From an uncultured Candidatus Saccharibacteria bacterium (GTDB taxonomy: Bacteria; Patescibacteriota; Minisyncoccia; Phycocordibacterales; UBA9973): DNA of 64,000 bases. Made by a program: the position numbers and the translations under genes. Positions 11,778 through 55,246 of the stretch are shown in pieces. Position 1 is the first letter of the stretch; every line of letters begins with the position of its first letter. The notes beneath the pieces are model-generated. The model searched no databases. It was not told the DNA's origin and saw only the letters and a list, made by a program, of their open reading frames with translations. Location: the NCBI GenBank assembly GCA_964645245.1, contig CAZYBS010000002.1, positions 18,161-82,160 on the forward strand, read 5' to 3'.

Positions 11778-11819
11778 GTGATATCAATATCATCATACTA
11801 GTGTGCTAGTATAAAAATT

Positions 11820-27621: not shown

Positions 27622-27728
27622 AAAGCCATTTTAGCACAGTAGAAAAATTGTCAAAATGGAAAAATGGGCAAAATGTTATTAAAATGTGGACAAATATTTA
27701 GGCTGAAATAGTTAAAATATGCTAATAT

Positions 27729-28685
27729 ATGGGCATGTTTAAAAAAGTATTATTGTCCGGCATTCAGCCTTCCGGCAAACCCCATATTGGGAACTATTTT
27801 GGCATGATGAAGCAACTTGTGAATTTACAAGACGAATATGATGTATACGCGCTGATAGTTGATTATCATGCCATGAAGTCTGTCCAAGATCCAAAGGCTA
27901 TGCGGGAAAATATTATTGCTGTTTTGATTGATTTCTTGGCAATTGGCTTAGATCCAAAAAAAGTCACTCTTTTCAAGCAAAGTGATATTTCCGAGCATAC
28001 TGAACTGGCTTGGATTTTTGAAACTCTTACCACAATGCCGTATTTGATGCGAGCACACGCTTTCAAGGACGCACAGATGAAGAATAAAGAAATAGATGTT
28101 GGCACTTTTAATTATCCGATGCTGATGGCGGCAGATATTTTGCTTTATAGCTCTGATATAGTGCCTGTCGGAGCCGACCAAAAACAGCATATTGAGATTG
28201 CGCGTGATACTGCGGAGAAATTTAATAATACCTTCGGTGAGACTTTTAAGTTGCCAGAAGTGATGATTGTGAAAGATGTGGCTGTGGTACCCGGCACAGA
28301 TGGCAGAAAAATGAGCAAAAGTTATAGCAATACCATTGCGCTTTTTGCCGAATACGAAGAAATTAAAAAATGTGTGATGAGCATAGTCACAGATTCCAGA
28401 GAGGGGATTCCTAAAAATGTCTACGCAATACACAATCTGCTTCGCCCCGCCGAGGAGCTTTTGCCTATTTATAAAAGCAAGGTAGGAAAGTATAAAGAGC
28501 TCAAAGAAATCCTGATTGAAGACTTGGAGAAATTCATCGCGCCACTTCGTGAACGTCGCAAAGTATTTGAAAAAGATATTCCAAAAGCTCTGGCAATTCT
28601 AAAAGCCGGCGGTGAAAAAGCCAAAAAAGTCGCTTCCGCTAAAATGGCCGAAGTAAGGGAAAAAGTGGGGGTAGATGTTTATTAA
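27729..28685 (+). CDS. trpS: Tryptophanyl-tRNA synthetase
   Basis: SGIQPSGKPHIGNYFG (HIGH-type motif) and KMSKS. Confidence 0.9.
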   Translation: MGMFKKVLLSGIQPSGKPHIGNYFGMMKQLVNLQDEYDVYALIVDYHAMKSVQDPKAMRENIIAVLIDFLAIGLDPKKVTLFKQSDISEHTELAWIFETLTTMPYLMRAHAFKDAQMKNKEIDVGTFNYPMLMAADILLYSSDIVPVGADQKQHIEIARDTAEKFNNTFGETFKLPEVMIVKDVAVVPGTDGRKMSKSYSNTIALFAEYEEIKKCVMSIVTDSREGIPKNVYAIHNLLRPAEELLPIYKSKVGKYKELKEILIEDLEKFIAPLRERRKVFEKDIPKALAILKAGGEKAKKVASAKMAEVREKVGVDVY

Positions 28686-28697
28686 ATTTTTTAAAAT

Positions 28698-28994
28698 ATG
28701 AAACATCTTAATAAAAAAATTCCAGAGTACAAACACGAACTAATTAAAGTTTTTTCCCAAATTTACGGTAATCAGAAATTAATGAATGAATTTCTAGTAG
28801 ATATTCTCACGCCAAATGAGTTTGAAGCTTTGGCTTTAAGGTGGCAAATAGTTAAAAAACTAAATAAAGGAGAGACCCATAGGTCTGTAGCAGGGGACTT
28901 AGGCTTAGGTATAAGTACTGTAAATCGTGGCTCTCGCGAACTTCGCAACAAAAACGGCGGTTTTCATCTAATGTTAAAGAAATTGGGTAAATAG
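28698..28994 (+). CDS. TrpR-like (YerC/YecD family) DNA-binding protein
   Basis: LTPNEFEALALRWQIVKKL...SVAGDLGLGISTVNRGSRELR, the family HTH signature. It is immediately downstream of trpS. Confidence 0.6.
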   Translation: MKHLNKKIPEYKHELIKVFSQIYGNQKLMNEFLVDILTPNEFEALALRWQIVKKLNKGETHRSVAGDLGLGISTVNRGSRELRNKNGGFHLMLKKLGK

Positions 28995-29043
28995 AGTTAT
29001 CCACAGACCATTTTTAAATGACCTTGCTTCCTCTTTTTTATAT

Positions 29044-29069
29044 GTTATCATGTACTAGTACATGATAAC
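29044..29069. promoter_or_regulatory. Perfect 26-bp palindrome GTTATCATGTACTAGTACATGATAAC with a trp-operator-like GTACTAGTAC core
   Basis: Read directly from the sequence. It is 50 bp downstream of the TrpR-like gene. Confidence 0.5.
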
Positions 29070-29104
29070 AATAGAAATCAACCAAATAGGTAAATCATGG
29101 TGGG

Positions 29105-29150
29105 GCGCAAAGCATCTAGCTTTTGCGTCGTTTTGTTGATTTCTTTTTCT
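29105..29150 (+). terminator. Rho-independent terminator after the trpS/trpR-like unit
   Basis: CGCAAAGC-ATCTA-GCTTTTGCG hairpin followed by TCGTTTTGTTGATTTCTTTTT. Confidence 0.6.
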
Positions 29151-29417
29151 ACCAAATAATAAGGAATCCATTAAGTGGCGCATGAGCGTCATTTTTTGTT
29201 CTTTGTTTTTTGGGGGATTATGAGAAAAAAAATCTTTGTCTGGCTGGAAGATTTTATCTTCTGGCTTGAACAGATCTTATTTAGAGTTCGCAAAGCTCTT
29301 TGGAAGATTGATGGCTTGGGCGGGGGTGAATAAAAAAACTTCTACCAACAAAGTTTGGGGGCGTCGCTTGTTCTACAAGCGGCGTCCATCAAATATTAAC
29401 AAAATAAAAATACGAAT

Positions 29418-29612
29418 ATGAAACATCAATTTATGTCAAGAATTAAATGCCTCATGCTCACTGGTCATAGAATGGGGAAATACCAGAGTAAAATAGTCAA
29501 TGGAGTGTACGGTAAAGTGGAGGCTCAAAAGACAAGGTGTGCAGATTGTCAATATGTTCAAAAGTATTGGGTCATAAAAGAAAAATTAAGACAATCAGTA
29601 AGATGCAATTAA
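29418..29612 (+). CDS. Small 4-Cys (putative zinc-ribbon) protein, cassette copy 1
   Basis: 64 aa with Cys at 11, 41, 44 and 63. Its paralog is at 37495..37686(-), and its stop is 1 nt from the next ATG. Confidence 0.55.
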   Translation: MKHQFMSRIKCLMLTGHRMGKYQSKIVNGVYGKVEAQKTRCADCQYVQKYWVIKEKLRQSVRCN

Positions 29613-29613
29613 G

Positions 29614-29799
29614 ATGAATTTATTAAAAGGAATTTTTGAACTATGTGTTGTATTGCCTACATTGATGCTAATTGATGGAGGTAAAAGGTGGTCAAAATAT
29701 TTAAACGAAGACGATCCATTGGAAGCTTTTCTCTGGACCTTGTTGGTAATATTAGTTTTTGCGTTGATTGTATTGTTAATAAATGGTTATGAATATTAA
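29614..29799 (+). CDS. Small 2-TM membrane protein, cassette copy 1
   Basis: 61 aa with two hydrophobic segments. Its paralog is at 37311..37493(-). Confidence 0.55.
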   Translation: MNLLKGIFELCVVLPTLMLIDGGKRWSKYLNEDDPLEAFLWTLLVILVFALIVLLINGYEY

Positions 29800-29814
29800 G
29801 TAAAATATAAATTT

Positions 29815-30504
29815 ATGAAAACATTAGGAATTATAGGTGGGCTTGGCCCTGTAACAACCTCTGAATTTTATTTGGAGTTAATTTTCTCATGTAAGAAAAT
29901 AAATAGAAAAAGTTATCCTCACATATTAATTAATAGTATTCCTCTGACTTTTGATATTGAAAGAGATGCAATTGCAGAAGGTGTAGGAGAAGAGAGATGT
30001 TTGCCTTATCTTCTTGATGCGGCGAAAAGCTTAGAAAGAGCCGGTGCTGACTTTTTAGTATTGCCATGCAATTCTTTACATGTATTTATTGGGGACATTC
30101 GAAGAACAGTTAAAATTCCTGTCATAAGTATTTTAGAAGAAACCTCTAAATTTCTTAAAAGGCAGAGGATAGATAAAGTTGGAATTATTGCAACTCCAAT
30201 AACTATTAGGAATAAATTATATGAGAAGTTTCTAAATAGAAGTGGTATTAGACAAATTATTCCCAATAACTTACAACAAGCAAAAATTGGCAAGTTGATC
30301 CATAACTTAGTGTCAGATAGATATAACAACAAAGATAGAGAGATATTGATAAAAATAATTAAAGATTTTGCTGAAGGAAAAATCAAACATATTATATTGG
30401 CTTGTACTGATCTTCAATTATTGATGCCTCAAAATAATGGAATTAAAATCTATGACACTATGAAAATTTTAGCTGATGCAACAATAAAAAATATCACTAG
30501 CTAA
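29815..30504 (+). CDS. Asp/Glu racemase family protein (aspartate racemase-like)
   Basis: N-terminal LGIIGGLGPVTTSEFY; 229 aa. Confidence 0.6.
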   Translation: MKTLGIIGGLGPVTTSEFYLELIFSCKKINRKSYPHILINSIPLTFDIERDAIAEGVGEERCLPYLLDAAKSLERAGADFLVLPCNSLHVFIGDIRRTVKIPVISILEETSKFLKRQRIDKVGIIATPITIRNKLYEKFLNRSGIRQIIPNNLQQAKIGKLIHNLVSDRYNNKDREILIKIIKDFAEGKIKHIILACTDLQLLMPQNNGIKIYDTMKILADATIKNITS

Positions 30505-30546: not shown

Positions 30547-31863
30547 ATGAAAAATCGGATATATATTAAAGATTTAAAAGACAATGTCGGAAAAGAAGTA
30601 ACTATTGCCGGATGGGTAGATGTCAGGCGCGACCAGGGGAAAATGGTTTTTTTTGATATGCGGGATATGACGGGCAAGGTGCAGTGCATAGCTTTACCAA
30701 GCCGAACGGAAGTTATAGAAAGAGCGAAAGAAATAAGACCTGAGTGGGTTTTAAAAATTAGTGGTCTTGTGAACAAGCGTCCAGAAAAAAATGTAAAGGC
30801 TGGAGTTTTGAATGGCGATGTGGAACTGGAAGTGACGGGTATAGAAGTACTTAGTGAAGCAAAAGATTTACCATTTGAAAAAGATACAGAAGTTAATTTA
30901 GATACGCATTTGGATTATTTGCCATTGACCTTGCGCAGTGAGCGAGGTAAAGATATTTTCAAAGTGCAAGAGACAATAATTCAGGCATTTCGGGAGGCAC
31001 TGATAAAAGAAAATTTTACAGAATTTCAAGCGCCAGCGATTGTCGGTGGAGATGCCGAGGGAGGAGCAATGGCATTCAAGGTTAATTACTATAATGACAA
31101 AACGGCGTTTCTGGCTACCAGTCCGCAATTTTACAAACAGATTATGGCCGGCGTATACGAACGTGTATTCACTACGCCCAAAATTTTCCGCGGCGAAAAA
31201 CATGCCACGACCAGACATTTGAGCGAGATAACCCAAATGGATTTTGAAATGGCATTTATAAAAGACGAGAAAGATGTCATGGAAGTTTTGGAAAAGGTGA
31301 TAAGGTATGTAGTTGCGAAAGTTGCAGAAAGTCATTCTGAAGTTTTTTCCAGATTTAATACGGAAGTTCCTCTTGTGCCGGAAAAGTTTCCTATTTTGAC
31401 ATTGCGTGAAGCGCAAAAGATTCTGGAAGTGGCGGAGGACCCAGACTTAGAACCAGAGCAAGAACGCAATATCTGCGAGTGGGCAAAAAAAGAACACGGT
31501 TCGGATTTTGTTTTCATTACGCGTTTCCCGACCGCAAAACGAGCATTTTACACTTACGAAGAGCCTGGAGAAGCCCCATATTCTCGAGGTTTTGACCTCT
31601 TATTCCGCGGGTTTGAAATAAATAGCGGGAGCCAGCGCATACATAATTACGACACCATGATTGAAAAAATGAAAGAAAGGGGTCTAGATCCGGAAAAATT
31701 CAGTTTCTATTTGCAAACTTTCAAATACGGCATGCCACCGCACGGAGGGTGTTCTACCGGACTAGAGCGCCTGACTGCCCGGATGCTTGAACTGGCCAAT
31801 ATAAAAGAAGCGGCGCTCTTTCCTCGCGATATAAATCGTATTGACACAAGACTTTCGGAATAA
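30547..31863 (+). CDS. aspS: Aspartyl-tRNA synthetase, archaeal/type-2 class IIb (possibly non-discriminating)
   Basis: OB-fold N-terminus, TSPQFYKQ, FRGEKHATTRHLSE, C-terminal GMPPHGGCSTGLERL...FPRDINRIDTRL, and a 438 aa length. Confidence 0.8.
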   Translation: MKNRIYIKDLKDNVGKEVTIAGWVDVRRDQGKMVFFDMRDMTGKVQCIALPSRTEVIERAKEIRPEWVLKISGLVNKRPEKNVKAGVLNGDVELEVTGIEVLSEAKDLPFEKDTEVNLDTHLDYLPLTLRSERGKDIFKVQETIIQAFREALIKENFTEFQAPAIVGGDAEGGAMAFKVNYYNDKTAFLATSPQFYKQIMAGVYERVFTTPKIFRGEKHATTRHLSEITQMDFEMAFIKDEKDVMEVLEKVIRYVVAKVAESHSEVFSRFNTEVPLVPEKFPILTLREAQKILEVAEDPDLEPEQERNICEWAKKEHGSDFVFITRFPTAKRAFYTYEEPGEAPYSRGFDLLFRGFEINSGSQRIHNYDTMIEKMKERGLDPEKFSFYLQTFKYGMPPHGGCSTGLERLTARMLELANIKEAALFPRDINRIDTRLSE

Positions 31864-36976: not shown

Positions 36977-37268
36977 AGCTTCTCCTTTCAAAGAACAGAT
37001 TTGTCGTCTCGGAACATCCGAGCATACATGAAAGAACAAAAACACCAGCCGAGAGGGCTGGTGTTTGAGTTGTAAGTTGAGTTTTAGTTTTTTTACAGCG
37101 CAAATATCAGCCTTCTAATGGAAAGCTGGTAATAAGCATTTAATATTGAAGTATTTCTTTGTTGTTGAATATTACTATTCATATTTCGCATACTAGCATG
37201 TTTTGATAAAAAGCGCAAGCGAATTTGTAGAAGTCATAATTCCGCTTATACTATCTACTTCACTCAAT

Positions 37269-37293
37269 TAAAGTACTTTAGTTAAGTAAAGTA
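37269..37293. promoter_or_regulatory. Repeat R2 (TAAAGTACTTTAGTTAAGTAAAGTA), same as the putative operator at 40681..40705
   Basis: 24 of 25 nt are identical to the 40681 copy, and it contains TAAAGTA/TACTTTA half-sites. Confidence 0.45.
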
Positions 37294-37310: not shown

Positions 37311-37493
37311 TTATCTATAGCCCATTAATAAAAGTATAATTAATACACAAACTAATATTATTAATAAGGTCCACAAAAAAGCATTCCAAGGGTCTTCTTC
37401 ATTTAAATATTTTGACCATTTCTTACTTCCATCGATTAATATCAGTATTGGTAGCTGAATACATAAAAAGAAAATTGGTTCAAAAACTCCCAT
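37311..37493 (-). CDS. Small 2-TM membrane protein, cassette copy 2
   Basis: Paralog of 29614..29799 (LPILILIDGSKKWSKYLNEEDP...). Confidence 0.55.
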   Translation of the reverse strand: MGVFEPIFFLCIQLPILILIDGSKKWSKYLNEEDPWNAFLWTLLIILVCVLIILLLMGYR

Positions 37494-37494
37494 G

Positions 37495-37686
37495 TTAGTT
37501 GCACCTTACTGGTGATCTTAGCTTTTCTTTGGCGACCCAAAATTTTTCAATATAAAAACAGTTCACGCATCTTGTTCTTTGCGCTTCGACTTTGCCATAG
37601 ACTCCGTTTACCATCTTGGTTTGGTATTTTTTCATTTTGTGGCTGGTCAATAGGCAGCATTTAATTCTTAAAATTATTTTATTCAT
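37495..37686 (-). CDS. Small 4-Cys protein, cassette copy 2
   Basis: Paralog of 29418..29612 (KMVNGVYGKVEAQRTRCVNC...VRCN). Confidence 0.55.
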   Translation of the reverse strand: MNKIILRIKCCLLTSHKMKKYQTKMVNGVYGKVEAQRTRCVNCFYIEKFWVAKEKLRSPVRCN

Positions 37687-37761: not shown

Positions 37762-38817
37762 CTATCTACTGGCTGTGATTACCGTCAGGATGCTTTCGCG
37801 CTTACCGCACCGCTGGAGGTTCCTTGCCAGTTCTGTTGCAGCTAGAAAGTTGGCACCCGCAGAGCTTGCTCCGTCGATACCAAAGGTCTTCAGTAGCCGA
37901 ACACCTTCTCTCGCTTCTTTGTCCGTAACGATACGAACTTGTTCTACGCTTGGCAGATGGTCAAGAACAAGCCTCGTCGGATCCCCGACGCCCAAACCTT
38001 CAATACCGATAACCTTTGATACTACTCGCGGGAAGTCGATATTGATGTCGAACCAGTTCTCCGGACTTCTTTGTGGATGGCAGCTGAGCGAAACTATCAT
38101 CCCCGCAGTTTCGTATGCCCGGAGGGCTTTTTCGACAGCTCTCTTTTTGACCTCGTACTTGTCTCTGGCACGCAAGTAGGCATGCCAGAGAGTTAAGGTT
38201 GAACCCACCCCTTCAACGGCTATGATTCGGGTATGAGGATTCACTTCGCGCAACGCCAATCCAATTCCGAAGAGGGTACCACCCGTGCCGACCCCAGCCA
38301 CGAGGTGGCTAGGTGCCCCGAGTCGTTCCACGATAGCCCTCCCGAATGTTCGTTTCTGGATATCGAGGATGACCGGCTGCTCGTGCTGTTCGAGCAACAT
38401 GTATCCTCTCTTCCGGCAGAGCTTTTTTGCCGTGGTGAGGCGACCGGTTCGGCCTTCGCGACGCGGGGTTTCCATAACCACTTCAATACCCATCGTCTTG
38501 AGTTTCTCGACGACGGGCCGACTGGTTTCGACGTATACAACCGCGGTGACCCCGACTCTGACCCCGAGTTCGTCTACGGCAAGTTTTACACCTTGTACGG
38601 TGTTTCCTCCGCCGACAACGACTACGGATCGAGTTGTATCCTTGATCTTCCCGGTGTCAAGGTAGTGCGCTAGCAGGCACTTGCCGATGGAGGTTTTGAC
38701 TCCAGCCGGCAATGTGTCGGCCCGAAAGAGAACAATTTTTTGTCCATGCCTTTTGGTGGTGCACAAAGGGACAGACAAAGCCCTTTCGTACTCTCTCTGT
38801 ACTGTCTCTTTGTACAC
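37762..38817 (-). CDS. PLP-dependent cysteine synthase / CBS-like (fold type II) enzyme, GC-rich; GTG start
   Basis: GVGTGGTLFGIG glycine loop and VVVGGGNTVQG. The start codon is GTG, 5 nt after AAAGGAGG. Confidence 0.6.
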   Translation of the reverse strand: MYKETVQREYERALSVPLCTTKRHGQKIVLFRADTLPAGVKTSIGKCLLAHYLDTGKIKDTTRSVVVVGGGNTVQGVKLAVDELGVRVGVTAVVYVETSRPVVEKLKTMGIEVVMETPRREGRTGRLTTAKKLCRKRGYMLLEQHEQPVILDIQKRTFGRAIVERLGAPSHLVAGVGTGGTLFGIGLALREVNPHTRIIAVEGVGSTLTLWHAYLRARDKYEVKKRAVEKALRAYETAGMIVSLSCHPQRSPENWFDINIDFPRVVSKVIGIEGLGVGDPTRLVLDHLPSVEQVRIVTDKEAREGVRLLKTFGIDGASSAGANFLAATELARNLQRCGKRESILTVITASR

Positions 38818-39047: not shown

Positions 39048-40208
39048 CTACACATATCTACGATCTACTTTTTCCGGGATACGACTCAAAAACTCATAAT
39101 TATTCTGTTTTATGCTCCTGCAGATTTCTTCCAGTTTTATTTCTTTTCCTTTTTGTTTTCCTAAAATAACAACCTCGTCGCCGGCCTTGATGGTTTTTTT
39201 GCTACCGATGTTCACAAAACAATTTGTCATGTTAATTCCGCCGACCAACGGATATTTAACTCCGCCAATTATTACTTTCCCTCCATTTACAAGCCGAGAG
39301 TCAAGGCCATAGGAGTAACCAGGAAGAAGAATAGCAATTCGAGTTTTCCGTTTGGCAATAAACTTTCTTCGATAAAATATGCCCTCACCCTTTTCAAGCT
39401 CTTTAATGCAGGCAATTATGGTTTTGAAAGAAACTACAGGAAACAGGTCTATTGTGCTTTTTCGTCTAGCTTCTAGTGAGGGATAAAAGCCAAAAAGTGA
39501 AATGCCAAGACGCACCATATCGAGAAGGGATTCCGAGAAAAGAAAAGCAGCTTCACTTGAAGCGATGCTCCATAAAGGAATTTTGATTTTCTCTTTTTGA
39601 CAACTTTCTTTAATCGCTATGAAGCGTTTAAATTGGATCTTGTCGAACTTTTTTTCTTCTGTAAAACTACTCAAGACACCTTCGATTTTTATGTTTTTCG
39701 ACTGCGAAACAGCACGTATAAATTTCAAAGCATCTTGATATGGCACACCAAGACGTCCTAAGCCAGTATCAATTTTTATCCACACTCCGCTTCTCATCTT
39801 GAGTTTTCTAGATACACTCTCAAAATTTCTAAGCATGGTATAGGTAAAAATAGTAGGATTAATTTGATTTTTTACGAGCTTTTCCCCATCTTCAAAACTA
39901 TATATTCCGAGGTTCACGATTGGCTTTGTAATTCCACCTTTTCTTAAAGTTATTGCTTCCTTTATTCCCACAACACCAAATACATCTATATATTTTTGAA
40001 GGGTATTGGACACACCCAAAACCCCCAAGCCATATGCATTTGCTTTCAACACCGCCATTATTTTACTTGGTTTGGTTATTCGTTTCATTTGGGCAATGTT
40101 TTTCAACAGATTTGCCTTATTAATTTCTATCCAAACTAATGGTTTTTTAATTTTTCTTTCACTATTTACAATTCTCATTTTTTTATTTTTTAAATTTCTA
40201 ATAAACAA
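39048..40208 (-). CDS. alr: Alanine racemase
   Basis: AVLKANAYGLGV PLP-Lys motif; 386 aa. Confidence 0.85.
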   Translation of the reverse strand: MFIRNLKNKKMRIVNSERKIKKPLVWIEINKANLLKNIAQMKRITKPSKIMAVLKANAYGLGVLGVSNTLQKYIDVFGVVGIKEAITLRKGGITKPIVNLGIYSFEDGEKLVKNQINPTIFTYTMLRNFESVSRKLKMRSGVWIKIDTGLGRLGVPYQDALKFIRAVSQSKNIKIEGVLSSFTEEKKFDKIQFKRFIAIKESCQKEKIKIPLWSIASSEAAFLFSESLLDMVRLGISLFGFYPSLEARRKSTIDLFPVVSFKTIIACIKELEKGEGIFYRRKFIAKRKTRIAILLPGYSYGLDSRLVNGGKVIIGGVKYPLVGGINMTNCFVNIGSKKTIKAGDEVVILGKQKGKEIKLEEICRSIKQNNYEFLSRIPEKVDRRYV

Positions 40209-40254
40209 AAACCCCTGCCTAAACTTAGGCAGGGGTTAGCTTCAAAAAATAAAT

Positions 40255-40662
40255 TTACGAGCTTAAAGATAACCCACGCCTAAGTTTAGGTGAGTTGTGG
40301 TGATGTGAAGAGACATTAGAAAGGCGAGCGAGGATTAACCTGTACCCGCCGAGCGAGCCGTAGAGCCACTTTGCGATGCGGGCAATGGTGGCGGAAGAGA
40401 GACCGGTAGATTCACTGATTGCATTATATTGCACGTCATTGGCAAGGAGCCGGGCGGCTTCAAATCTGTTTGTGAATTCTTTGATTTCCGCCGGTGTCAT
40501 CAAATCGCGAAGAAAACGCTTGGTCTCATCGGCATTTTTGAGCTCCAAAATTCCAGCAATTAATTGCCTGTTTTCCTTAGTATTCCAGTCCATATCCGGG
40601 CCAATTTCTTGTATTAGCCGTACGGTTCTTATGGATGTATTTTTATTCATTCCTTTACTCAT
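40255..40662 (-). CDS. TrpR-like (YerC/YecD family) DNA-binding protein, paralog 2
   Basis: MTPAEIKEFTNRFEAARLL...AISESTGLSSATIARIAKWL. Confidence 0.6.
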   Translation of the reverse strand: MSKGMNKNTSIRTVRLIQEIGPDMDWNTKENRQLIAGILELKNADETKRFLRDLMTPAEIKEFTNRFEAARLLANDVQYNAISESTGLSSATIARIAKWLYGSLGGYRLILARLSNVSSHHHNSPKLRRGLSLSS

Positions 40663-40666
40663 ACAG

Positions 40667-40706
40667 CTACTTTAGCAGACTAAAGTACTTTAGTCAAGTA
40701 AAGTAG
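40667..40706. promoter_or_regulatory. Nested palindrome CTACTTTAGCAGACTAAAGTACTTTAGTCAAGTAAAGTAG (includes the 14-bp perfect palindrome CTAAAGTACTTTAG) 5 nt upstream of the TrpR-like start
   Basis: Read directly; it is made of TAAAGTA half-sites. Confidence 0.5.
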
Positions 40707-40733
40707 CTAGGGGAGGTGTGGATAACTTATTAT

Positions 40734-54768: not shown

Positions 54769-55041
54769 ATGGCACATAGAAAAGCCGGCGGAACGGCCAA
54801 AAACTTAAGAGATTCAAATCCCAAATACCTCGGTATTAAGCTGGCGGATGGCCAAAAGGCCCAATCTGGCTCTATTATCGTCCGCCAGCGCGGTACGGTC
54901 GTTATGGCGGGCAATAACGTCTCTATAGGCCGTGATCATACCCTTTTCGCTCTCAAGCCCGGCACCGTCAAATTCGGCTCTCGTCGCAAGATTTCCTTCA
55001 ACGGCAGAATGATAGTAAAAAAAGTGGTGAATGTAGTATAA
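54769..55041 (+). CDS. rpmA: 50S ribosomal protein L27
   Basis: [24 protein letters not shown]...IIVRQRGT...GRDHTLFAL. Confidence 0.92.
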
Positions 55042-55104
55042 TACTAGCAACCCGCCTTAGTTCGTTCGTTTCCTTTCCGGGCCTAATTGTGAGGGAATCG
55101 GATG

Positions 55105-55200
55105 GATTTCCTTACTCTGGTAGTCCCCTTTGCCCTGCTCCCTAGTCTCCTGACTAGATTCGAGCGGGGCTTCCTTTTTATACAAATTATTTTCCACTTT
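55105..55200 (+). terminator. Nested hairpin (GCCCTGCTC[CTAGTC-TCCT-GACTAG]...GAGCGGGGC) plus a T-run after rpmA
   Basis: Read directly. Confidence 0.35.
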
Positions 55201-55246
55201 AGTTTAATAAAGTCGTTAGACTGGAACTTCTTGATCAAAAGGTAAA

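Follow-up and report, generated by a model that had tools for sequence, protein, structure and literature searches.

We analyzed a 64,000-nucleotide stretch of contig CAZYBS010000002.1 (hereafter the window), centering on a gene for a small TrpR-like repressor (gene 1), the perfect palindrome that lies behind it, and a second, HisR-like repressor gene (gene 2) that is preceded by a repeat of its own (Table 1). Based on the source names of the regulator homologs (Nomurabacteria/Patescibacteria), the window is taken to represent a Nomurabacteria-like Patescibacteria genome. For comparison, we used 18 related loci with 70–86% protein identity for TrpR (19 genomes including the window, two of them near-identical) and 80 metagenomic loci with 50–83% protein identity to gene 2 for HisR; single loci are given an L number where they need to be told apart. 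Sequence conservation, RNA covariation, family membership and gene neighborhoods form the evidence, from which we infer the pairing of proteins with sites, their ligands, where transcription starts, and the stalling of ribosomes. Together, the sequence data make it rather likely that the window carries two independent amino-acid-responsive switches of known types: one for tryptophan, combining a TrpR-like operator with an attenuator, and one for histidine, built on a HisR-like operator.

Table 1. Features of the two putative switches and of related sites (window positions; ORF, open reading frame)
Feature	Position	Strand	Basis or detail
trpS (tryptophanyl-tRNA synthetase)	27729..28685	+	Pfam tRNA-synt_1b 1.7e-64
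TrpR-like repressor gene (gene 1), 98 aa	28698..28994	+	Pfam Trp_repressor PF01371, E 8e-17
AGTTATCCACA box, DnaA-box consensus	28995..29005	+	upstream of -35; at this position in nearly all 18 loci, one-base variants
-35-like TTGCTT (TTGCAT in relatives)	29024..29029	+	16 nt before -10; inferred from sequence and conservation
Extended -10, TGT-TATCAT	29043..29051	+	inferred promoter; TGnTA(T/C)(C/T)AT kept in most of 18 loci
Candidate TrpR-type operator, perfect zero-gap 28-bp palindrome TGTTATCATGTACTAGTACATGATAACA	29043..29070	.	core ATGTACTAGTACAT at 29050-29063
Leader peptide ORF MITIEINQIGKSWWGAKHLAFASFC	29062..29139	+	tandem Trp codons TGGTGG 29098-29103, TGA 29137-29139
Segment 1:2 hairpin	29091..29143	+	29104-29112:29121-29129 plus outer helix 29091-29096:29138-29143; U-rich run after; terminator-like in scan
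Antiterminator	29120..29186	+	segment 2 (29120-29129):segment 3 (29177-29186); RNAalifold consensus form
Segment 3:4 intrinsic terminator	29173..29205	+	stem 29174-29192, U run 29193-29205; terminator scan
Whole attenuator	29086..29222	+	covariance model from 13 other genomes: 125.6 bits, E 5.8e-24; next window hit 12 bits
Genes behind the attenuator	29229..30504	+	small ORFs 29229-29333, 29418-29612, 29614-29799; amino-acid racemase 29815-30504; aspS at 30547
HisR-like (YerC/YecD family) repressor gene (gene 2), 135 aa	40255..40662	-	TIGR02531 65.8 bits, cut-off 42.2
Candidate double HisR-type operator, two TACTTTA-N6-TAAAGTA units, 2-bp overlap	40668..40705	-	conserved in 80 loci
AGTTATCCACA box	40716..40726	-	upstream of hisR promoter
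Terminator hairpin after the hisR-like gene	40210..40237	-	13-bp-arm inverted repeat and T run
Second HisR-type double site TACTTTACTTAACTAAAGTACTTTAATTGAGTGAAGTA	37256..37293	-	about 40 nt upstream of the Tyr/Phe leader promoter preceding the GNAT gene
Weaker single HisR-like site CACTTTAGTTTAATAAAGTC	55195..55214	.	0 mismatches to ACTTTA-N6-TAAAGT; between convergent features
Candidate degenerate TrpR-type site ATACTAGTGTGCTAGTAT, ATACTAG-tgtg-CTAGTAT	11795..11812	+	7 nt before ATG at 11820

Gene 1 and gene 2 belong to different repressor families

The original prediction, made from the bare sequence, had described two TrpR/YerC-family regulators that share one small regulon. The sequence features that it named were all confirmed, with slight changes to coordinates. 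Both genes do encode TrpR-superfamily regulators, with gene 1 reaching 61.5 bits on PF01371 against a cut-off of 27 and gene 2 matching the same model at E 6.5e-17. Gene 1 scored 45.5 bits on the TIGR01321 TrpR equivalog model and lower, 30.8 bits, on the yecD_yerC model, its best PDB matches were structures of the Escherichia coli Trp repressor (E 2.7e-7), and homologs with 77–89% identity occur in Nomurabacteria/Patescibacteria. In a HMMER alignment with 1TRR, the tryptophan-pocket and DNA-contact residues of E. coli TrpR are retained (T38 = T44, R48 = R54, I51 = I57, V52 = V58, R62 = R69, I72 = I79, T74 = T81, R77 = R84 and G78 = G85), with three deviating positions (A80S, T83N and S88E); residue roles were taken from established TrpR structures and from Ashniev et al. 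2022 (PMC9413887). By these comparisons, gene 1 appears closest to the true Trp repressor and not to YerC/YecD. The gap to the upstream trpS gene is 13 nt, the trpS-trpR order is kept in related loci, and the two genes are probably co-transcribed.

For gene 2, the best PDB matches were 3FRW, 3G1C (E. eligens HisR) and 3KOR, and its family assignment points to a HisR ortholog of the YerC/YecD family, not to a second TrpR. YerC has been equated with HisR, a histidine-dependent repressor whose site, cacTTTAnnnnnnTAAAgtg, often lies before hisR itself; autoregulation is reported for about half of the hisR genes, and the motif was validated in vitro (PMC9413887).

A palindrome with the features of a TrpR operator follows gene 1

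A 26-bp palindrome had been predicted behind gene 1. It is present at 29044-29069, but forms part of a longer perfect 28-mer that starts 49 nt past the gene 1 stop codon. With an arm of 14, this is the longest such palindrome in the window, compared to a maximum arm of 12 in 200 first-order Markov simulations of the window. Its core ATGTACTAGTACAT is kept in 18/18 related Nomurabacteria loci, 60–90 nt past the stop codon of the TrpR-like gene. The sole internal variant of the core, the symmetric ATGCACTAGTGCAT, occurs in L008 and L013, and the substitution I72M, at the position of Ile79 in the recognition helix of E. coli TrpR, is confined to the same two loci; this coincidence suggests that the adjacent TrpR-like protein reads the palindrome. 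Given their conservation in 18/18 and 80 loci, respectively, the palindromes next to gene 1 and gene 2 are very probably cognate to these regulators, as had been proposed.

The palindrome overlaps a putative promoter for the genes that follow. In related loci, the usual order is AGTTATCCACA, TTGCAT, a 16-nt spacer and TGnTA(T/C)(C/T)AT, and the final two bases of the -10 element are the initial two bases of the core ATGTACTAGTACAT. The predicted transcription start is at about 29058, within the palindrome. Because it overlaps the conserved extended -10 of the next unit, the palindrome is best read as the candidate operator of a promoter that faces away from gene 1, and not as an autoregulatory site. 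A tie to the expression of gene 1 itself is thus not supported, the repeat lying over the promoter of the next unit and before an attenuator with Trp codons, which the original prediction had missed.

In the published TrpR consensus, TGTAcTnGTnnACnAgTACA, 8 bp separate the GNACT half-sites (PMC9413887). The palindrome and that consensus share the half-site TGTACTAG, but here both halves abut on one CTAG. Compared to the operator type TGTACTnGTnnACnAGTACA, with its GNACT half-sites and 8-bp spacer, the palindrome has the same TGTACTAG half-site and a single CTAG. The earlier reading of GTACTAGTAC as the E. coli trp operator arrangement stands for the half-site, but not for the arrangement, which shares one CTAG instead of having two CTAGs 8 bp apart.

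The palindrome is followed by a putative leader-peptide attenuator

The predicted leader ORF starts about 4 nt after the predicted start point, so that the transcript would be nearly leaderless. Leaders of the type MKNNFKINK..KSWWGxK follow the promoter in 15/19 genomes, and 14 of these 15 contain TGGTGG, with TGGCGG in the remaining one (L001). The leader stop codon (29137-29139) sits just past segment 2 of a set of alternative RNA helices, which we quantified in an alignment of 14 genomes as the share of alignment cells that are paired, using slid helices as controls. The 1:2 hairpin with its outer helix had 93.7% of cells paired and 3 pairs changed on both sides. The antiterminator, which includes an inner helix between GTTGATTTCT (29135-29144) and AGGAATCCAT (29162-29171), reached 99.6% paired cells, with two-sided changes in 5 pairs, and the terminator form had 90.7% and 6–7 such pairs (e.g., UA:6 and CG:4 at one pair of the 3:4 stem). 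The slid controls gave 33–55% for the antiterminator and 33–56% over both forms. Both alternative partners of alignment column 61 show covariation with it, and for the stretch 29058-29215 the fold had a z of -5.0.

When the covariance model was applied to 61 other loci, copies were found only in the TrpR loci L010, L011 and L107, and none in 48 hisR loci, 8 loci with homologs of a Cys-rich gene, or L012, L013 and L015. An Rfam scan of the whole window at gathering score, and of 28990-29420 at E ≤10, returned no family, Trp_leader (RF00513) included. The covariation supports both of two mutually exclusive forms, terminator and antiterminator, and points to a trpL-type attenuator behind the palindrome.

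These elements suggest the following mechanism. By binding the palindrome with L-Trp as co-repressor, the TrpR-like protein would block initiation, since this site coincides in part with the extended -10 and includes the predicted start point. Transcripts that are initiated would be nearly leaderless and carry a 25-codon ORF with two adjacent Trp codons directly 5' of segment 1. When charged tRNA-Trp is scarce, the ribosome would stall on UGG-UGG and mask segment 1; segment 2 would then pair with segment 3, helped by the GUUGAUUUCU/AGGAAUCCAU helix, and RNA polymerase would read through. When tryptophan is plentiful, the ribosome would reach the UGA at 29137-29139 and mask segment 2, and the 3:4 terminator (29174-29205) would stop transcription.

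A double HisR-type site forms the putative promoter of gene 2

A site had been predicted 5 nt upstream of gene 2. The 40-mer CTACTTTAGCAGACTAAAGTACTTTAGTCAAGTAAAGTAG is indeed present at 40667-40706, but 4 nt from the start codon (CAT at 40660-40662 on the plus strand). On the coding strand its two units read TACTTTA-cttgac-TAAAGTA and TACTTTA-gtctgc-TAAAGTA, giving two exact ACTTTA-N6-TAAAGT cores at 40669-40704, and the motif equals the published HisR consensus cACTTTA-N6-TAAAGTg (PMC9413887). A -35 element, TTGACT (40697-40692, in the first spacer), and a -10 element, TAAAGT (40674-40669), are embedded in the double site, with the ATG 6 nt past the -10. The 38-mer is almost invariant in the 80 loci, and the distance from -10 to ATG is 6–7 nt in 67/74. 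With the TAAAGT -10 sitting 6–7 nt before the ATG and within the double site, a leaderless and autorepressed hisR mRNA is implied. We propose that the HisR-like protein would bind the two overlapping 20-bp ACTTTA-N6-TAAAGT palindromes over its own leaderless promoter, resulting in autorepression, and that it would also bind a second double site at 37256-37293.

This second site had been noticed as a near-identical 25-mer upstream of the GNAT island. The 25-mer TAAAGTACTTTAGTTAAGTAAAGTA does recur at 37269-37293, and the similarity covers the whole double site. More than 20 related loci carry further HisR-type sites, often double, in line with the earlier mention of orphan copies; the site at 37256-37293 is of this class. 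The gene directly downstream of hisR is hisG (188.9 bits, cut-off 75.75) or hisI in no fewer than 8 loci, among them that of the close relative L107. In the window, the neighbors of gene 2 are a nitroreductase gene and an alanine racemase gene, and no his genes. Co-transcription of alanine racemase with gene 2 is unlikely given the strong terminator hairpin at 40210-40237, which probably makes the alanine racemase gene (39048-40208) a unit of its own.

A C-terminal tail, ..HHHNSSKLRKGLSLSS, encoded at 40255-40300, is conserved in Patescibacteria HisR-like proteins and absent from the solved HisR-like proteins of about 100 aa. The tail contains HH or HHH in 108/120 homologs, and a run of His codons within a putative histidine repressor is curious.

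Separately, the extra sites in relatives were considered as pre-rRNA elements, for which antisense ORFs would be typical. Rfam found no rRNA there, and the ORFs were antisense to a pterin-4a-carbinolamine dehydratase gene.

The genes behind the putative tryptophan switch vary between genomes

The tryptophan cassette has syntenic flanks, with recR and dnaB followed by trpS and trpR on one side and aspS beyond the cassette on the other, and the content between attenuator and aspS differs in almost every genome. In the window, the slot ends with an amino-acid racemase gene (166.8 bits on TIGR00035, cut-off 93.1); no further plus-strand terminator was predicted past the attenuator up to 29900, the end of the scanned stretch. 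An amino-acid racemase also occupies the slot in L008 and L013, in the latter directly after the operator. Tryptophan genes occur as trpE in L003 (542 bits, cut-off 517.7), as a TrpC-like ORF, a trpE-like gene and trpG in L005, and as a lone trpB in L017 (575 bits, cut-off 392). Other slots hold phosphoribosyl pyrophosphate (PRPP) synthetase, phosphoenolpyruvate (PEP)-utilizing enzymes of 760–820 aa, an AstE/AspA-like enzyme, or families without a Pfam match. The neighborhoods thus suggest that both regulators control variable genes and not complete amino-acid pathways.

A small Trp-rich protein (..WGPxRxxLxWE..) is common to L005 and L008. The window also contains an inverted duplication, 70% identical, of a two-gene cassette at 29425-29790 (plus strand) and 37317-37682 (minus strand). 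The encoded products, a CxxC-containing protein of 64 aa and a membrane protein of 61 aa, match no family. Of the two copies, the first follows the Trp attenuator, and the second is situated just upstream of the second HisR-type site. A pyridoxal phosphate enzyme at 37762-38817, considered as TrpB, gave only weak hits to cysteine synthase and dehydratase models. No tRNA was found in the window.

Evaluation of the two-switch reading and its alternatives

Several observations weigh against reading the window as a tryptophan switch and a histidine switch. Gene 1 falls under the cut-off of the TIGR01321 TrpR equivalog model (45.5 versus 67.25 bits), for which reason we name it only TrpR-like. The -35 elements are weak, and the promoter scan made no call for TTGCTT because only 3/6 consensus positions match. 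L008 and L013 look like sister taxa, such that protein and operator may have changed together only once. The 64-kb window contains neither trp nor his genes, so that the tryptophan link comes from relatives and not from this genome. Many of the extra HisR-type sites stand 3' of a pterin-4a-carbinolamine dehydratase gene or precede one that encodes a fusion of EamA transporter and riboflavin kinase; neither is a histidine gene. Lastly, the palindrome has a single central CTAG and not the E. coli GNACT-N8-AGTNC arrangement, from which it would follow that the binding geometry differs or that tandem dimers are involved. E. coli TrpR dimers are said, in work by Lawson and Carey from 1993, to bind in tandem at an 8-bp register, and the 8-bp difference would be compatible with two tandem dimers on the 28-bp palindrome.

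As an extension of the two-switch reading, one can imagine that in Nomurabacteria, as auxotrophic symbionts, the regulatory cassettes outlived the pathways they once served and are now portable starvation switches before hypervariable cargo, which sense host-supplied Trp or His and switch genes for host interaction or scavenging, with the leader RNA or peptide possibly acting in trans. We put this forward tentatively, as a possibility that falls short of being the probable one. With equal reserve, the cargo might then comprise lone trpB or trpE, PRPP synthetase, PEP-utilizing enzymes, racemases, small membrane and zinc-ribbon proteins, and the Cys-rich paralogs.

A different view of gene 2 holds that the YerC/YecD-like protein kept the HisR motif but lost histidine sensing and became a general regulator, for instance of flavin/pterin or transport genes, or that the repeat is mainly promoter architecture. 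The many targets without a histidine link leave room for a ligand other than histidine in the HisR-like protein from Candidate Phyla Radiation (CPR) bacteria, and the extra sites, which include one before an FMN (flavin mononucleotide)-reductase-like gene besides those at the EamA transporter/riboflavin-kinase fusion and the pterin dehydratase gene, fit this view, as do the nitroreductase and alanine racemase neighbors in the window and the N- and C-terminal extensions that are lacking in solved HisR-like structures; the embedded -35 and -10 elements fit its promoter-architecture version. The position of hisG or hisI directly downstream in at least 8 loci, a dyad symmetry that extends well beyond the promoter hexamers, and the match to the HisR motif validated in vitro (PMC9413887) nevertheless make it unlikely.

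The tryptophan leader might likewise be mainly a trans-acting small RNA and/or peptide released by termination, and not a cis switch, which would explain its persistence where trp genes are lacking. The element is conserved while the genes downstream differ in almost every genome, and stretches such as AAGGAAUCCAUUAAG are more conserved than pairing requires. A trans-acting attenuator RNA, rnTrpL of Sinorhizobium, is reportedly a documented precedent. However, every conserved stretch belongs to one or the other of the alternative helices, and the element always lies between the promoter and genes on the same strand; nor did a trans target emerge, no search aimed at one having been made. As the principal function of the leader, trans action therefore seems to us somewhat less probable still than a changed ligand of the HisR-like protein, while being compatible with the cis model.

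It is very improbable that the 28-bp palindrome serves solely as an RNA hairpin, terminating or stabilizing the trpS-trpR transcript at its 3' end, and is no protein operator. It does lie behind gene 1, a perfect palindrome can fold, and its sole variant keeps complementarity. Yet there is no U run on either strand and the terminator scan made no call; the 14-bp sequence itself, and not merely its pairing, is invariant in 18 species, whereas the real hairpins nearby vary with compensation; the palindrome overlaps the conserved TGnTAnnAT -10 and its core equals the TrpR half-site; and in L099 a 25-mer promoter/operator module stands directly before a gene start and not behind a gene. As a trpS-trpR terminator, the palindrome was accordingly rejected.

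Equally implausible is the originally proposed regulon in which two TrpR paralogs jointly link GC islands and Cys-rich genes: although both proteins match PF01371 and both promoters have an upstream AGTTATCCACA box, the TrpR-like protein and the TIGR02531 member belong to different curated families with different best structural relatives, their motifs (GTACTAGTAC versus ACTTTA-N6-TAAAGT) are unrelated and accompany only the respective regulator in 18 and 80 loci, and in relatives the first regulator has trp genes as neighbors, the second his genes.

Comparison with known systems

With E. coli TrpR/trpO, the tryptophan switch shares a small all-helical PF01371 repressor in which the Trp-pocket/DNA-contact residues T44, R54, R69, I79, T81, R84 and G85 are kept, the TGTACTAG half-site, and a candidate operator over the -10 and start point of a promoter before a trp leader. 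It differs in having one central CTAG (12–14-bp core, palindrome of up to 28 bp), where the 20-bp E. coli site has two at a distance of 8 bp (PMC9413887), in that the repressor gene is joined to a trpS operon without an operator of its own and scores under the TIGR01321 cut-off, and in that the regulated genes are mostly non-trp. With E. coli trpL (Rfam Trp_leader RF00513), the leader shares a short ORF whose two neighboring Trp codons come immediately 5' of segment 1 and, as predicted from the alignment, alternative 1:2, 2:3 and 3:4 pairings, an intrinsic terminator with a U run, and a position behind a TrpR-controlled promoter. In contrast to trpL, it has no sequence or structure match to any Rfam leader, its ORF is longer (21–34 codons) and runs through segments 1 and 2 to a stop inside an extra inner antiterminator helix, and its mRNA is nearly leaderless in this genome.

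The HisR (YerC) proteins of Firmicutes, Actinobacteria and Synergistetes (Ashniev et al. 2022, PMC9413887) resemble gene 2 in their TIGR02531 membership, the 20-bp palindrome, a site before the own gene and, in some genomes, his neighbors; Patescibacteria are not among the phyla listed for HisR in the available parts of that paper. Unlike those systems as described there, the loci studied here always have two overlapping sites that hold the promoter hexamers of a leaderless mRNA, the proteins have 130–140 aa with a conserved C-terminal HHHNSSKLRKGLSLS tail, and many extra sites stand at genes unlinked to histidine. Chlamydia trachomatis trpRBA offers a further parallel, where a TrpR retained in a reduced genome controls only part of the pathway, for salvage (cf. 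the lone trpB in L017), whereas its trpR is autoregulated within the trpBA operon and, according to the available part of PMC7755916, attenuation is reported to act via YtgR, with no classical leader and terminator.

Gene regulation in Patescibacteria (CPR) is almost unexplored, and these organisms are seen as auxotrophs with few regulators. In the searchable literature, we found no description of TrpR, HisR or attenuation in CPR/Patescibacteria, and the two putative small regulons, while of known kinds, would be new for this phylum. They provide two testable predicted regulator/site pairs: one joins a TrpR-like protein to a CTAG-centered palindrome, the other a HisR-like protein to the double ACTTTA-N6-TAAAGT site. 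The covariation-supported attenuator, of the classical ribosome-mediated type, is covered by no Rfam model and would place the textbook E. coli combination of repressor and attenuator far outside Proteobacteria, while the single-CTAG operator bears on the old question of TrpR half-site register and tandem binding. We consider these two elements, together with the conservation of cassettes before exchangeable genes in organisms with at most pathway fragments, to be of most interest. With the cassette conserved while the controlled genes are exchanged or lost, the use of a Trp-starvation signal in an obligate symbiont becomes approachable.

Orphan sites and minor features

An inverted repeat, ATACTAG-tgtg-CTAGTAT, had been reported before Cys-rich paralog 4 and is found at 11795-11812. 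The sequence TACTAG-N4-CTAGTA has exactly one exact copy in the window, and the right half of the repeat is a -10-like TAGTAT (11807-11812) that stands 7 nt before the paralog 4 ATG. In L099 (GCA_964367135.1), the positional ortholog carries a perfect TrpR operator, ACTATGTACTAGTACATAGATAC, there; this site, TTACTATGTACTAGTACATAGATAC, is the 25-mer promoter/operator module also found behind the trpR of that genome, and the distance from its CTAG to the ATG is that of the first CTAG of the window site. In L098, TACTAG-N4-CTAGTA lies behind a AGTTATCCACA box and a TTGTAT-N17-TAGTAT promoter, and the sites at 11796-11811 and in L098 form a second type, in which 8 bp separate two CTAGs. A TrpR-type site is absent in 7/8 fetched homologs of paralog 4, which argues for a lineage-specific site. 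The element at 11795-11812 is probably a diverged TrpR-type operator, as its ortholog suggests, and is not statistically compelling on its own in the window. We found no Trp enrichment in the Cys-rich paralogs that might have been a reason for TrpR control.

More generally, the expected enrichment of the motifs was not significant within the window. Hits versus expectation were 6 versus 2.7 for TAAAGTACTTTAG (up to 2 mismatches), 1 versus 0.4 for GTACTAGTAC (up to 1 mismatch), 2 versus 0.87 for TGTACTAGTACA (up to 2 mismatches) and 17 versus 16.5 for TTATCCACA (up to 1 mismatch). The window alone therefore cannot establish a regulon, and the support for orphan copies of both site types comes from other genomes, namely the more than 20 loci with HisR-type sites and the perfect operator of L099.

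Between the tandem Cys-rich paralogs at 59-1171 and 1215-2894, an ATACTA-N11-TAGTAT inverted repeat at 1172-1214 resembles 11795-11812 with a longer spacer; its first arm overlaps the stop codon. Several genes of the window appear leaderless, with a -10-like TAGTAT or TAAAGT 6–7 nt before the ATG and no room for a Shine-Dalgarno sequence (11807-11819, 37190-37196, 40669-40674 and others), and most of the recurring ATACTAG strings are -10 boxes of this kind read from the opposite strand, or arise where ACTAG follows TATAAT (18165, 55044).

Next to the second HisR-type double site, 37036-37218 (minus strand) holds what looks like a second leader-peptide attenuator. Behind a promoter with TTGCGC (37218-37213) and TAGTAT (37195-37190), a leaderless ORF (37182-37093) encodes MNSNIQQQRNTSILNAYYQLSIRRLIFAL, with Tyr-Tyr directly before a hairpin, CCAGCUUUC/GAAGGCUG. 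The 3' arm of this hairpin has a possible alternative partner in the 5' arm of a terminator at 37066-37040; the GNAT ORF comes next. The fold has z = -4.9, and because homologous leaders read SYFFFSF in L006 and SYFLFFSS in L014, the element looks like a Phe/Tyr attenuator. At 55036-55190 (plus strand), just before the single HisR-like site at 55195-55214, a TATAAT box, a GC-rich stretch of about 150 nt, and a hairpin with a T run, with no ORF, may represent a small RNA; the only Rfam match was an insignificant one to Atu_C7 (E 0.1).

The box upstream of both regulated promoters, (A)GTTATCCACA, equals the DnaA-box consensus and lies 8–25 nt upstream of the -35 of TrpR-controlled and hisR promoters. 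A TTGTCCACA form stands upstream of the dnaB promoter (27685-27693, minus strand). In 385 kb of related loci, 85 of the 105 boxes are located right upstream of TrpR-type or HisR-type sites.

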